Assembly: GCA_951406725.2 (NCBI GenBank)
Contig: OX597823.1
Location: forward strand, 77,810,001-77,874,000
Length of the DNA: 64,000 nt
Direction of reading: 5' to 3'
Source of the DNA: Octopus vulgaris
Lineage: Eukaryota
Part shown: one piece after another, positions 2,425-56,835 of the stretch
Position numbering within the stretch: the stretch's first letter is position 1
Layout of the letters: each line of letters opens with the position of its first letter
Translations under genes and position numbers: made by a program
Notes under the pieces: generated by a model
Seen by the model: the letters and a program-made list of their open reading frames with translations, nothing else
Databases searched by the model: none
Told to the model about the DNA's origin: nothing

Positions 2425-2655
2425 TGTTGCTTTGAGCTGGTCCTTGTACCTTCGAAGAGGATAACCCCCATGATTTTTTTTCCTAAAGTAATCTCTTTGA
2501 ATAAGACTTGGTGTGGAAATCATGAGTTTGCCTTTCTTGTTATATGTCCTGACCATCAAAGATAAAGTTTCATGATTTTATTCAGTGAGCTCGCTTCAGG
2601 AAATATACCACAGGGTTGCCCTCTTCAAAGATACAAAGACCAGAACAAAGCAACA
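2425..2655. mobile_element. MITE-like element with ~45-bp imperfect terminal inverted repeats
   Basis: TGTTGCTTTG..CTGGTCCTTGTACCTTCGAAGAGGATAACCC is matched in reverse complement by GGGTTGCCCTCTTCAAAGATACAAAGACCAG..CAAAGCAACA. Confidence 0.6.
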
Positions 2656-3510: not shown

Positions 3511-3604
3511 TTGTATAAAGCTACGCATCACCATCATCATCATTATTGTCTTAATGTCTACTTTGCAATGCTCCCCTCTAAAAGAAGCCTGTCACATATA
3601 TGAA

Positions 3605-3795
3605 TGCGTAGCCGTATTTCGTCTGTCGTTACATTCTGAGTTCAAATTCCGCCAAGGTCGACTTTGCCTTTCATCCTTTCGGGGTCGATAAATTAAGTAC
3701 CAGTTTCTCACTGGGGTCGATGTAATCGACTTAATCCCTTTGTCTGTCTTTGTTTGTCCCCTCTGTGTTTAGCCCCTTGTGGGTAGTAAAGAAAT
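3605..3795 (+). mobile_element. SINE family B (5'-truncated)
   Basis: Near-identical to 16146-16380 (GAGTTCAAATTCCGCC..GACTTTGCCTTTCATCCTTTCGGGGTCGATAAATTAAGTACCAG). Confidence 0.9.
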
Positions 3796-16145: not shown

Positions 16146-16380
16146 CAAGGCGGCGAGCTGGCAGAATCGTTAGCACGCCGGGCGAAATGCGTAGCCGTAT
16201 TTCGTCTGCCGTTACGTTCTGAGTTCAAATTCCGCCGAGGTCGACTTTGCCTTTCATCCTTTCGGGGTCGATAAATTAAGTACCAGTTACGCACTGGGGT
16301 CGATGTAATCGACTTAATACCTATGTCTGTCCTTGTTTGTCCCCTCTGTGTTTAGCCCCTTGTGGGTAATAAAGAAATAG
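16146..16380 (+). mobile_element. SINE family B, full length, CpGs intact
   Basis: AAGGCGGCGAGCTGGCAGAATCGTTAGC A-box region, GAGTTCAAATTCC B-box, conserved core. Approximate TSD GGTAYCTAC; lies inside an older copy of the same family. Confidence 0.9.
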
Positions 16381-17667: not shown

Positions 17668-17886
17668 AAGGCGGCGAGCTGATAGAAACATAAGTATGCC
17701 AGGCAAAATACTTAGCAGTATTTTGTCTGTCATTATGTTCTGAGTTCAAATTCCGCTGAGGTCGACTTTGCCTTTCATCCATTCGGGGTCGATAAATTAG
17801 GTACCAGTTGCGTACTGGGTTTGATCTAATCGACTGTGCCCTCCCCACAAATTTCGAGCCTTGTGCCTAGATTAGAAAAAATTAAA
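17668..17886 (+). mobile_element. SINE family B
   Basis: Homologous to 16146; flanked by the direct repeat TATTTGGAGTG (TSD). Confidence 0.9.
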
Positions 17887-36360: not shown

Positions 36361-37767
36361 TTTGCTATTCCTTCTTCAGTCATGATTTGATGATAATGGC
36401 TTTTGATTTTTATCATGAAGCCACTGACTTTCTGCTGGTTTAAGAAAGACTAACAAAGCTTGGTTCATAACATGACTGACAATCTTCTCGTAGTATTTGT
36501 AATTTAGATAACATGTAATATAATCGTCATCATCACTGCCGCCGTCATCCTTGTCATCATCGTATGGCCATGTTCCATGCTGGAATATGTTGGACAGTTT
36601 GACGGGATCCAGTGGGTCCAAGGACTGCATCATGCCCTAGCGTTTCTGCTTTGGCAGGATTTCTCTGGGTGAATGCATGCACACACACACACACACACAC
36701 ATAGCTTGTACATTATGTATTTCAGACGTTTTGTTTGTTGAAGTGAAATTCTGAATATAAAACATTTTCAACAAAATCTAAGAAGTAGACATCTTGTTTG
36801 GGCAAAATCATAAACCACTTCTTTTTGGAGTTACTTTGCTAGAGTATATAGACAAGGTTTTAAGTTCAAAACTAACTTTAATTTGTATACTTTTGGTTCT
36901 GAATGTGGTACATCACTTATTTCAATATACCTGTTTAATAACTAATTTAATGCTTATAACATGATTTGTAGGAACAATGTTTAACTGAAGAAATTGCTCC
37001 AGAAGTATGCAAATCTCTTGATTTACCAAAGTTTATCCCAACCCAAATTAGCAGAGATGAAAATGAAAGTAAACGATAGAATGTCCTTTTTTTCTCTTAT
37101 AATGAAGTCAATATGTTCAGTTTGCTCATGGTTTCATGAAACATAGGTTAACCATGTAGCTGAAAGAATTTAAATCATTCATTATATAATTTTGGTAATA
37201 CTATTAAGGAATGCATTTTTTTTTTCATGTGGAAAGATATCATAGAGTGCCATGAAATTCTTTAATCATTTCATCAGTTTTGGTCATTGGACTGAAAATA
37301 GTGGGGCATTTCTCAGAAGTGTTTTCATGGATTGATTCAGTCCCAATGCTTTGCCCAGTATGTATTTTATTGACCTCATGAGGACAAAAAAAAATCAAAA
37401 GTTGACTCAGGAATAAAGAAACACAACCTAACATAATTTTTTTTTTGGTTTTATCTCTATTGTTTGACGATCCACAACTGATTTTGTTATCTCCTTGCAA
37501 TGTTTGTCTCAGACAAAATTATGTGACATTTCTGGGTATCAAATTTCACTCAAAAGACTTTGGTTGACCCTTGGCAATAAGAGAAGTCACTTATACAAGG
37601 AAGCAAACTCTGTGGAATCAAATCTGGAATGAAATTGTTGCAAAGTGAACTTCCCAATCAGACAACCAAGGCTACTCCTGTATATTTAAATATATACAAG
37701 AATTAAAGACAACATTATTTACATTATTTGTTACTGACGGATATTTGTCCTCATCTTGTATGTTGTT

Positions 37768-37813
37768 AACACAAAGTTTCGGCTGATATACACTCCAACC
37801 TTCATCAGGTGTC
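37768..37813 (-). ncRNA. Minimal type I hammerhead ribozyme motif
   Basis: GACAC-CUGAUGA-A-GGUUG-(10 nt)-CAGCC-GAAA-CUUU-GUGUU. Both core boxes are intact and stems I and II pair; the helix III palindrome is mutated (ACGU to ACUU). Confidence 0.7.
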
Positions 37814-37861
37814 TTGGGGAAATTTCAAACCTGGGTTCTCATTCCTAAGGTTTTTTCGATG

Positions 37862-37910
<49 letters not shown>

Positions 37911-38104
37911 AGTCACTGCCTGGAATTGAACTCGGAATCTTGGGGTTAAGAGCACGGACTACTAACCCCAAGATTCCAAGTTTGATTCCAGACAGTGACC
38001 TGAATAAGAATAATAATGATAATGATAATAATGATAATAATAATAACAGCAACAACATCAAAAAATACCTTAGGAATGAGAACCCAGGTTCGAAATTTCC
38101 CCAA

Positions 38105-38150
38105 GTCACCTGATGAAGGCTGGAGGGTAGATCTGCTGAAATGTTGTATT
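38105..38150 (+). ncRNA. Minimal type I hammerhead motif (degenerate copy)
   Basis: GUCAC-CUGAUGA-A-GGCUG-(10 nt)-CUGCU-GAAA-UGUU-GUAUU. Core intact, stems partly mismatched. Confidence 0.55.
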
Positions 38151-38959
38151 AACAATAAACAAGATGAGGACAAATACTTGTCAAATATAAATAATGTAAA
38201 TAATTCCTCATCTCTTAAATATAGAACTGTATTAATTAAAGACAAGATTTACAAGTCATGTTGATGAAGGTATATTTTTTCTGTACTAGTCATAGATGTC
38301 CATTATGCAAAAACTAAATTTGAAATTCATTCATCACCTTATTATACTTGAAGTGAATTATAAAACATAATTAAATTAATATCTGTTGCTTATACATTTC
38401 CTGTTTAGTTGGATCTGTTTTGAACCCCTTACCCATACATTAGTTGGCAGTGATTAACAAACCACTTTGATCTGCTAAGGTCTCTGTAGATTAATTAGTG
38501 CTTTGAAAGGTATTGAGGAATTTCAAATGGAATACTCTAGAACTTCATTCATTGCTTTTAATTTTCAGATTCACACAACCCTCATGAGAATAGATGTGAA
38601 GATGAAATAAATGGTTTATGTATTCTTCTGTTAATCTGAAACCACTTGGTCTAATCTCCTCATTACTAACAATCTTGATTGCTAAAAAGTAGCAATCAGT
38701 CTTTTACGAAAACTAACCATATATTTCTGCAATATCTATGACATAGTATCAATGTTTTCCAATTCAATTTTTTTTTCTCCAGATTTCTATCCAGTTAACC
38801 GGTTCATTACCAGGATCTCTCCAGAATTTGGTAAATATTTCTGGTAGAAGTGAATCTAATAGCAAAATAACTGTTTAAATTTGAAAGAAAAAAAAAAATA
38901 TCTCTTTTAAAAGACTTTTGTGCCGTTTGAGAAAGAAAAAAATAGTTTGCAAAATTATC

Positions 38960-40758: not shown

Positions 40759-40904
40759 ATGAAAAGTTCCTGGCTTTGGGTAAAAGAAACTACAGGAGGA
40801 TCAGATAATTATGATTTTATTCAACATATTCCCCTCTCAGATTCACACACTTATTACAGCAGTCCTTCAGTTTTTCTAAGTGCTGTAAAAGAACTTGGAA
40901 GGTT
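40759..40904 (-). mobile_element. Mariner transposon 3' end (transposase C-terminus plus partial TIR)
   Basis: Minus strand translates LEKLKDCCNKCVNLRGEYVE*, matching the mariner KLxxRWxKCIxxxGxYVE end; TIR-like TGAAAAGTTCC nearby. Confidence 0.75.
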
Positions 40905-40911
40905 ATATATA

Positions 40912-41066
40912 TGGTAAGTAGCTTGCTTGCCAACCACAGGATTCTGGGTTCAGTCCCACTGCGTGGCATCTTGGGCAAGTGTCTTCTACTATAGACTCAG
41001 GCCGACTAAGGCCATGTGAGTGGATTTGGTAGACGGAAACTGAAAGAAGCCCATCATATATATGCA

Positions 41067-41123
<57 letters not shown>

Positions 41124-49153: not shown

Positions 49154-49750
49154 GAATACTCAGTACATGAATCTAAAAAGTGCTTGACATAATATTGGCA
49201 GAAATAGTTATTTAAACTACATTAAACCACACTTTTATTTCTGAATATAATTAAGGAAAATGTCATTCCTTTCTTTCTAAATTTGTAGGAAAACAGAACA
49301 TTTCTTTCATTCTAAAAATGTATGTCACTTCAGATAAAGTTAAATTAATTTATCTGCTCGCATTTTACAAAGAGTTAATTGTATTACTCTGATCTGCAAT
49401 TCCATACACCTCGTTTCATTAATTTAATAAGATTCTGAATTTCAATATTAAATAAGTTAGTGCAAATCACCAAGCATTTGTAAATTAGAATATAACAGGC
49501 TTAGAGTGAGGGAGGGGAAGAAAAAAATTACGATAGAAAAATTAAAACAAGATTTTTTAACCGCCAGGAAAATCTGTTTCATTCAGGGGTAGAAAGTAAT
49601 GATAAAGTGGAATGAAATACAAAACAAAATATTTCAAACCATTTTGATAATTAGCAACAATTTTGGTTGTAGATTGATCAGGCCTTGTGAGTAAAGATAT
49701 TCTAGCCATGAGCATCCTGTCTGTGTTTTTTACCAGACATGTAGGATTCT

Positions 49751-49814
49751 ACAGCTCTCTATATTTGAGCGATGAGGATTTATGTATATTATGTACATTA
49801 TTTACATTTGACAG

Positions 49815-49862
<48 letters not shown>

Positions 49863-50019
49863 CAACAACAACAACATTGAAAAATACCTTAGGAATGAGA
49901 ACCCAGGTTTGAAATTTCCCCAGTACACCTGATGAAGGCTGGAGAGTATATCAGCCAAAACGTTGTGTTAACAACAAACAAGATGAGGACAAATATCTGT
50001 CAAGTGTAAATAATGTATC
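49751..50019. mobile_element. Second fold-back insertion of the hammerhead-tail element
   Basis: Inverted 3' end (49751-49818), then a forward copy from (AAT)n through the tail; 9-bp TSD TAGGATTCT at 49742-49750 and 50020-50028. Confidence 0.8.
49924..49969 (+). ncRNA. Minimal type I hammerhead motif (G12 mutated)
   Basis: UACAC-CUGAUGA-A-GGCUG-(10 nt)-CAGCC-AAAA-CGUU-GUGUU. Perfect stem II and ACGU palindrome, but GAAA is AAAA (CpG-decay-type change). Confidence 0.6.
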
Positions 50020-50164
50020 TAGGATTCTGTTGTACAGTGTGTTTTGTTTATTTTAAAGACACTGAGATTTGGTTGTTATTTCTACTTGGTGAATATTTAA
50101 GTACATGCCATGATGCTCCATCATGCATGTGGTTTATGAATAAGGTAGCCGAGGCAGTGAAAGT

Positions 50165-56375: not shown

Positions 56376-56416
56376 TACTATATATATATTTTATATATAT
56401 ATATATATATTATATA

Positions 56417-56578
56417 GGCGCAGGAGTGGCTGTGTGGTAAGTAGCTTGCTTACCAACCACATGGTTCCCGGTTCAGTCCCGCTGTGTGGCATCTTGGGCA
56501 TGTGTCCTCTGCTATAGCCTCGGGCCAACCAATGCCTTGTGAGTGGATTTGGTAGATGCAAACTGAAAGAAGCCTGTC

Positions 56579-56620
<42 letters not shown>

Positions 56621-56835
56621 ATATGTTTGTGTGTCTGTGTTTGTCTCTCTAGCATTGCTTGACAACCGATGCTGGTGTATTTACGTCCCCATCACTTAGC
56701 GGTTCGGCAAAAGAGACCAATAGAACAAGTACTGGGCTTACAAAGAATAAGTCCCGGTGTTGGTTTGCTCGACTAAAGGTGGTGCTCCAGCATGGCAGCA
56801 GTCAAATGACTGAAACAAGTAAAAGAGTAAAAGAG
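56417..56835 (+). mobile_element. SINE family A (full length, reference copy)
   Basis: GGCGCAGGAGTGGCTGTGTGG head, B-box, core, internal (TA)n, (GTAAAAGA)n tail; sits in (TA)n. Confidence 0.92.

Follow-up and report, generated by a model that had tools for sequence, protein, structure and literature searches.

The tRNA-headed, hammerhead-bearing repeat of Octopus vulgaris is the pseudo-LTR of a Penelope-type element

Introduction

What kind of retroelement joins a tRNA-like head, an (AAT)n tract and a hammerhead ribozyme? The question is raised by a repeat at positions 37701-38245 of a 64,000-nt stretch of the Octopus vulgaris genome (2.8 Gb), hereafter the window (OX597823.1 of assembly GCA_951406725.2, positions 77,810,001-77,874,000, or G000:C10:77810001-77874000; 33% GC). 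Autonomous retrotransposons are held to use Pol II, with Pol I co-transcription for R2, and SINEs to use Pol III. The initial annotation took the repeat for a non-autonomous, Pol III-driven and ribozyme-processed SINE/retrozyme hybrid that is mobilised by a Penelope-like element (PLE). Here we examine the locus, its relatives across the genome and the element to which they belong. Comparisons with published systems refer to excerpts of the papers cited.

Results

Anatomy of the locus

All three parts named in the initial annotation, the tRNA-like head, the (AAT)n tract and a tail of ~180 nt, are present at 37701-38245, including the B box of the left arm (Table 1), and the window does hold three copies of the tail (37714-37860 on the minus strand, 38050-38231 and 49880-50019 on the plus strand), each with a likely disabling change. 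What had been read as one unit, however, is a pair of head-to-head arms, 84% alike, that are joined at a 5-nt inverted repeat and flanked by a 12-bp target-site duplication (TSD). Neither arm retains an intact head, most of the A box being absent from both, and the third copy is headless and belongs to a second insertion. We conclude that 37701-38245 is an inverted pair of short pseudo-LTR (pLTR) copies of a Penelope-type element, and a typical PLE insertion. In tandem copies of the family, the frame that opens at the equivalent of the ATG in each arm continues through the hammerhead into the RT body. Different interspersed repeat families with (TA)n or (TG)n ends, probably common host SINEs, occupy 1919-2141, 2746-2968, 3564-3733, 16147-16316, 17668-17837, 40893-41115, 56416-56638 and other positions of the window.

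Table 1. Features of the two insertions in the window, and landmarks of the consensus unit
Feature	Reference	Position	Strand	Remark
TSD, left copy, 12 bp	window	37701-37712	+	same 12-mer at 38234-38245
TSD, right copy, 12 bp	window	38234-38245	+	same 12-mer at 37701-37712
Left arm, inverted pLTR copy, unit 2401-2635	window	37714-37967	-	5'-truncated inside head; stops at first 3' end, without tail
Minimal type I hammerhead, left arm	window	37768-37813	-	G16.2>U disrupts palindrome (likely disabling)
ATG, left arm	window	37840-37842	-	equivalent to start of 835-aa consensus ORF
(AAT)n tract, left arm	window	37862-37908	-	
Pol III B-box match, left arm	window	37922-37933	-	
Inversion junction	window	37944-37967		5-nt inverted repeat within tRNA-like head; both arms without most of A box
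Right arm, pLTR copy with tail, unit 2401-2662	window	37944-38231	+	
B box, right arm	window	37978-37989	+	CpG-decayed
(AAT)n/(AAC)n tract, right arm	window	38003-38055	+	
ATG, right arm	window	38076-38078	+	equivalent to PLE ORF start
Minimal type I hammerhead, right arm	window	38105-38150	+	6 changes from consensus; C15.2>U, C11.1>U and stem changes likely disabling
PLE tail, ~33 nt	window	38199-38231	+	between two preferred 3' ends
Second insertion of family	window	49742-50028		inverted tail arm, AAT tract and headless plus-strand arm
TSD, second insertion, 9 bp	window	49742-49750 / 50020-50028		
Short inverted tail arm, second insertion	window	about 49751-49818	-	
Hammerhead, headless arm of second insertion	window	49924-49969	+	G12>A (likely disabling)
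ORF stop	unit	2353		
tRNA +1	unit	2385		
B box	unit	2437		
ATG	unit	2507		
Hammerhead	unit	2536-2581		cut after 2576
3' ends	unit	near 2629-2635 and 2662		

The parent element

Some copies of the family extend upstream of the head into an RT/GIY-YIG frame, and a search with that region, combined with walking in the 5' direction, recovered the element. All unit positions are given on a 2,659-nt majority consensus made by script from the fetched copies. This consensus holds a single 835-aa ORF in which DKG and YVDD occur along with a GIY-YIG-type motif (the GIY-YIG/CxC assignment is by eye); RVT_1 matched two of three natural fragments, one just above and one just below the cut-off, and Pfam GIY-YIG gave no match in the fragments tested. 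The order of the unit is ORF stop, ~30 nt, a small hairpin, A and B boxes, (AAT)n, ATG, hammerhead, two 3' ends and the RT-GIY-YIG body. The ORF begins ~30 nt 5' of the hammerhead, whose sequence lies within its first codons, and continues from there into the body. What had been called the tail therefore corresponds to the 5' end of the Penelope ORF rather than to a borrowed 3' end. Together with the head, the AAT tract and the hammerhead, it makes up the pLTR of a Penelope/Poseidon-type element.

Among 30 loci selected on the GIY-YIG region, the head follows directly on the GIY-YIG ORF stop in 28, the hammerhead/tail is present in 26, and both are found in 25. The initial annotation was thus right to name a PLE as the mobiliser: the autonomous GIY-YIG/RT element that it suggested looking for exists, as the 835-aa consensus ORF, and the tail belongs to this PLE rather than to an ordinary LINE 3' UTR. 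The ORF is 37% identical to an 836-aa Anolis protein (P0057) and 57% identical to P0004, in which the hammerhead-encoded peptide is kept (compared as protein). A quick tree built with 30 of the 120 homologs listed places the element among Penelope-type homologs, far from the host's second PLE type. Low Phe content of the ORF was set aside as too weak to serve as evidence, 2 of 49 homologs being equally low.

With ~5% non-CpG divergence, the family appears to be inactive, and the best 150 of 6,845 candidates include no intact autonomous copy, the longest open frame being 569 aa. DNA contigs of four sequencing runs cover every part of the pLTR; the 21 runs listed as holding the stretch or part of it, under five organism labels, include no RNA run. 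The host also carries a young PLE (L271-L274, e.g. G000:C16:20835000-20841999). Intact ORFs of 781 aa are numerous in it, another ORF of 330-380 aa lies upstream, and repeated CCAAT/CRE motifs, a TATA motif and a splice-donor-like site were seen by eye in its pLTR; this element has probably been active recently.

Abundance and insertion anatomy

Seven insertions in 58 evenly placed 10-kb regions give a hand estimate of ~34,000 loci (Poisson range 14,000-70,000). The 3' ends of copies are bimodal, clustering at unit 2626-2635 and 2660-2666, and the tail between them is present on one arm only in 29 of 30 inverted loci. A TSD of at least 8 bp flanks 18 of these 30 loci (one is a TA repeat), compared with 4.5% of mismatched pairs. 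The pLTRs are found in partial tandem or inverted arrangement. The one-armed tail, bimodal 3' ends and TSDs agree with PLE anatomy as described in PMC8557442 and PMC3846280.

The closest published relatives in organization are the EN+ Penelope/Poseidon PLEs, in particular Anolis Poseidon (PAc; Frangieh et al. 2024, PMC11167929) and Adineta Pen2 (PMC3846280), which, in the excerpts, share with the octopus element a single RT-GIY-YIG ORF of ~835 aa, a pLTR that overlaps the ORF start and a hammerhead at that start. They also share two internal 3' ends around a 30-40-nt tail, inverted and partial-tandem insertions, TSDs of ~9-13 bp and uncleaved RNA as template. Unlike them, as far as the excerpts describe, the octopus family has a tRNA-derived A/B-box segment and (AAT)n in its pLTR, most of its copies stop there, and its unit contains no T4 run.

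Several headless copies (L005, L011, L025, L090) follow immediately on the (AAT)n tails of other LINE-like elements, which suggests targeting of, or annealing to, AAT microsatellites. At three loci (oriented positions L184:1731, L189:1732 and L203:1760) a direct junction connects position ~234-255 of the body with unit 2378-2379. Two of them, L184 and L189, are separate insertions that restart at 2379 and have six variants in common; these shared variants suggest that the two may be traces of a minor young master of 515 nt.

The hammerhead

The ribozyme described in the initial annotation was confirmed in the family consensus, which has both catalytic boxes, 5-bp stems I and II, an extra A after A9, a palindromic remnant of stem III (15.2-16.2) and a cleavable GUU triplet. 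In every point it agrees with the minimal PLE type (Cervera and de la Peña 2014, PMC4209133): helix III is absent, 15.2-16.2 is palindromic, one extra nucleotide stands between 9 and 10.1, and G10.1 pairs with C11.1. Such hammerheads are described there as dispersed in thousands, singly and in opposite-strand pairs, and ascribed to truncated PLEs; the excerpts offer no difference within the ribozyme itself.

The exact, intact 39-nt core occurs 1,218 times in the genome (G000) and 0 times in the reversed control. Across 124 arms chosen independently of the core pattern, the core was kept in 35 and the core with both stems in 18. N7 is the sole strongly polymorphic non-CpG core position in these arms (T 72%, A 27%), and N7 of the hammerhead tolerates any base. 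Stem II is identical in this family and in an older sister family described below, and no compensatory pairs were seen in the stems. In the window alone, a loose core pattern gave one match against 0.32 expected, which is not above chance. Rfam scans returned no hammerhead or tRNA match among the best 150 of 185 listed or among all 13 of a second list; for the hammerhead, this is as expected of a motif that lacks helix III.

A recurrent in-frame 3-nt deletion at the cut site (unit 2573-2578) is present in a minority of arms at many loci (e.g. L198 and L203); it may reflect slippage or a cleavage-dead sub-lineage, and no clear linkage with other variants was seen. Junctions that land at the cleavage site in L191 and L202 were considered as cleavage footprints and rejected, because microhomology of 5-8 nt suffices to explain them. 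Nine loci (L164, L176, L110, L286, L328, L329, L332, L343 and L349) hold minimal hammerheads of other families, in which stem II is short, the flanks are rich in pyrimidines and the ends are (TA)n; no ORF or tRNA head was seen nearby.

Short copies and the older sister family

An independent SINE/retrozyme, with short masters of its own and a tail borrowed from a PLE, would accord with the finding that short head-tail copies far outnumber ORF-linked ones. The head, however, is part of the autonomous element's own pLTR, and a comparison of 67 short with 46 ORF-linked heads revealed no position at which the majority base differs (two flagged positions were gaps). Non-CpG divergence is likewise equal, at 4.8% for short copies, 5.5% for ORF-linked copies and 4.6% for the ORF. 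Processing by the ribozyme does not hold up either. Short copies extend across the cut site, with the hammerhead in their middle, and 1 of 98 arms starts near that site (2570-2584; full tails were a selection criterion for the focal arms but not for their partners). The short copies cross the cleavage site and are like the ORF-linked ones in both sequence and age, so they derive from uncleaved RNA. Cleavage by the hammerhead probably depends on dimer formation or on help from a protein, and the templates of these copies were not cut.

Set beside the known classes, the family has the tRNA-related head with A and B boxes of a SINE2 element and 5' ends at the head (47 of 61 arms) but forms no separate lineage. 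It also has neither the tandem monomer arrays nor the cleavage-delimited unit of a non-LTR retrozyme: young copies are dispersed and inverted, and the old family forms partial tandems only.

That old family (L351-L380, e.g. G000:C12:33298181 and C20:44907069) is an ORF-less mini-element of the kind first envisaged. Its 298-nt unit consists of the tail, ~50 nt of body, the UTR, a tRNA-like head with boxes kept and no AAT tract, and a hammerhead with a GUA triplet. Among the 30 best of 46 matches to a query that spanned the ORF-deletion junction, the junction was present in 28, and divergence is 17%. The copies are partial tandem and inverted, L377 carrying a ~114-nt tandem array of its head; no autonomous parent of the 298-nt family was found. 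From its sequence, we regard it as a true non-autonomous, tRNA- and hammerhead-bearing PLE derivative. Typical young short copies end at the tail, without the downstream ORF sequence that the old family has kept.

The existence of this sister family, the hint of a minor young master in L184 and L189, and the precedent of schistosome Sm-alpha (PMC6765202) give the independent SINE/retrozyme some standing. For the young family, nonetheless, the model is largely refuted by the location of the head, the lack of any diagnostic difference, the spanned cut site and the ends of the short copies, and we consider it improbable.

The schistosome elements Sm-alpha and Sj-alpha (PMC6765202, PMC2770079) resemble the octopus repeat in that a tRNA-derived, Pol III-type head is followed by a hammerhead, at high copy number and interspersed. 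Their hammerheads are canonical type I and the excerpts name no autonomous parent, whereas the octopus head lies within an autonomous PLE repeat and its hammerhead is minimal and coding. PLE-derived retrozymes have been proposed (bioRxiv 10.64898/2026.07.22.740005, PMC7761336, PMC7229834), and the ~300-nt hammerhead units of non-LTR retrozymes, for which dependence on PLEs has been proposed (PMC7229834; bioRxiv 10.64898/2026.07.22.740005), are similar to the 298-nt family in size and partial-tandem form. Those retrozymes form tandem arrays and circular RNAs, unlike the young octopus family, and no tRNA head is mentioned (0 matches for 'tRNA' in the excerpt of the bioRxiv paper). A likely non-LTR retrozyme array is present elsewhere in the genome, as tandem ~359-nt repeats that each carry a type I hammerhead (L091:3078-4508, plus strand, with two copies on the minus strand; G000:C1:20000001-20010000).

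The tRNA-like head and the 5' limit of copies

The initial annotation described the head as tRNA-like, with a B box, and a derivation from a tRNA with Pol III boxes holds: of the eight isotypes compared, host tRNA-Arg is the best match, with a score of 63 against a shuffled maximum of 47. The boxes are kept and the cloverleaf is decayed, with acceptor and T stems broken; ARAGORN reported no tRNA in the window and found the consensus head only at a 70% threshold. A functional tRNA or RNase P substrate was rejected because these stems are broken.

Copies have a sharp 5' limit at unit 2378-2386. In 93 arms drawn from sets that were not selected on upstream sequence, only 8 reach the ORF, and 47 of the 61 at-risk arms (those reaching 2395) end at 2376-2395, within 20 nt of the tRNA start. 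Genome-wide 18-mer counts fall across this wall, from 6,097 in the head to 999 about 60 nt upstream. What sets the wall? RNase P cuts at +1 in mascRNA-type elements, and 7 of the 93 arms start exactly at tRNA +1, so the head could be a processing signal at which RNase P trims longer Pol II transcripts. With its broken stems, its recognition by ARAGORN only at the relaxed threshold and many arms that reach 2-7 nt upstream of +1, we find this very improbable.

A stronger case can be made that the element is an ordinary, Pol II-read Penelope with a passive tRNA/SINE relic in its pLTR, and that a hairpin at unit 2378-2389, rather than an RNA start, makes the wall through cDNA fold-back or resolution. 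The wall coincides with this hairpin, one of the strongest in the unit and conserved between the young family and the old, and palindromes are described at the pLTR 5' ends of Adineta (rotifer) Penelopes, with no tRNA mentioned in the excerpts (PMC3846280). When 45 arms ending at 2376-2392 were sorted into rough k-mer classes, 12 were symmetric fold-backs; where an arm is inverted, its first bases are indistinguishable from upstream sequence. The other 33 were not symmetric, 21 meeting a distant part of the partner arm and 12 unrelated flank. Moreover, most ends fall in the loop or on the 5' side of the stem and not at its 3' base, where RT would stall, and the direct tandem junctions of L184, L189 and L203 restart at 2378-2379.

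The boxes themselves tell against a passive relic. Three A/B-box changes separate the young family from its sister, which is 17% decayed, and all fall at positions degenerate in the box consensus, while the spacer has a 10-nt indel. On the other side, conservation of the UTR that precedes the head equals that of the boxes. Self-priming at the hairpin beside a passive relic is the main rival to a Pol III promoter, and we rate it as unlikely though far from negligible.

T4 runs and transcription data

The sense strand of the 2,659-nt unit contains no TTTT. In the ORF, three nulls run on the consensus gave expectations of 2.9, 5.0 and 3.1 (P 0.024, 0.005 and 0.029), and TTTT is its most depleted 4-mer. 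For comparison, the Pol II-type young PLE of the same genome, with the same T content, has 8-9 T4 runs (expected 6.4-7.7). The depletion is modest, which suits a Pol II-read element: A5 (P 0.002-0.04) and G4 runs are low too, and one LINE ORF has a single T4 in 2,589 nt (P 0.02-0.03). Inspection by eye revealed no CCAAT, CRE, TATA or intron-like motifs in the element, unlike the control PLE, which tells against Pol II. Three RNA-seq runs of a related organism, which look unstranded with reads on both strands, showed no pile-up of RNA starts at the head or cut site.

Discussion

The sharp stop at the tRNA start, the kept boxes, the lack of TTTT and an older ORF-less family that retains boxes and hammerhead together suggest a Pol III promoter in a PLE. 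Judged from sequence, Pol III drive of the head is plausible, and a Penelope pLTR with a tRNA-derived Pol III promoter is in our view the best explanation of the family, one that we favour with a little more than even confidence.

In the scheme that follows, the anatomy is observed, whereas we infer which polymerase acts, where transcription starts and how the cDNAs are joined. In a tandem master, a type 2 Pol III promoter would start transcription near unit 2379, ~13 nt upstream of the A box, and the transcript would traverse the ORF without meeting a T4 terminator. Anolis Poseidon primes in vitro at two internal sites, extends both strands, uses uncleaved RNA and has a protein-assisted hammerhead (PMC11167929). 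By analogy, the octopus RT would prime inside the RNA at the two sites that bound the tail. Priming in the upstream pLTR would leave only ~250-280 nt to the RNA 5' end and so yield the SINE-like majority, whereas priming in the downstream pLTR would yield copies that contain the ORF. Head-to-head pairs such as 37701-38245 would arise when both strands of a single cut prime a cDNA and the two cDNAs join through microhomology.

The fullest form of this scheme, in which the whole ~2.9-kb autonomous PLE RNA is made by Pol III from a captured tRNA-Arg promoter, is kept free of T4, and sheds SINE-like copies by internal priming and non-autonomous tRNA and hammerhead elements by ORF deletion, strikes us as distinctly doubtful. 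Two points count against Pol III: translation of an uncapped Pol III RNA is left without explanation, and autonomous LTR partners of Pol III elements must, according to Kojima, use Pol II (PMC10886601).

Much of this anatomy is familiar. The family is mostly a textbook Penelope end, with one unusual feature, the tRNA-derived A/B-box segment in its own repeat. A tRNA head joined to a hammerhead is already known from Sm-alpha (PMC6765202, PMC2770079), as are Pol III promoters in the terminal repeats of non-autonomous TRIMs. The TRIMp3 elements Cassandra, Helenus and Ajax (Kojima 2024, PMC10886601) likewise have a small-RNA-derived Pol III promoter in the terminal repeat, but they are non-autonomous LTR elements, whereas the octopus case is a PLE and the repeat is that of an ORF-bearing element. 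The pLTR promoters described for PLEs in the excerpt of PMC3846280 are TATA/Inr-like; the octopus pLTR has an A/B-box segment instead. The literature searched, outside Repbase, Dfam and most subscription papers, yielded no account of an autonomous PLE whose pLTR is tRNA-derived; the family may therefore be on record already. Among published annotations, one of octopus repeats counts 190 PLE families, with no match for 'hammerhead' in the excerpted text or supplement (PMC13282606).

If a Penelope does carry a tRNA promoter in its own repeat, the Pol II/Pol III divide between autonomous elements and SINEs would be blurred, and hammerhead-bearing SINE-like elements such as schistosome Sm-alpha would gain a testable origin, by way of a PLE that gives rise to a hammerhead SINE. 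Should Pol III play no part, the family still marks the point at which a PLE RNA began, and it provides in vivo support for the model of internal priming on an uncleaved template that is known in vitro from Anolis Poseidon. A caution also follows for the host genome, in which tens of thousands of 'tRNA SINE' calls may be the ends of PLEs.
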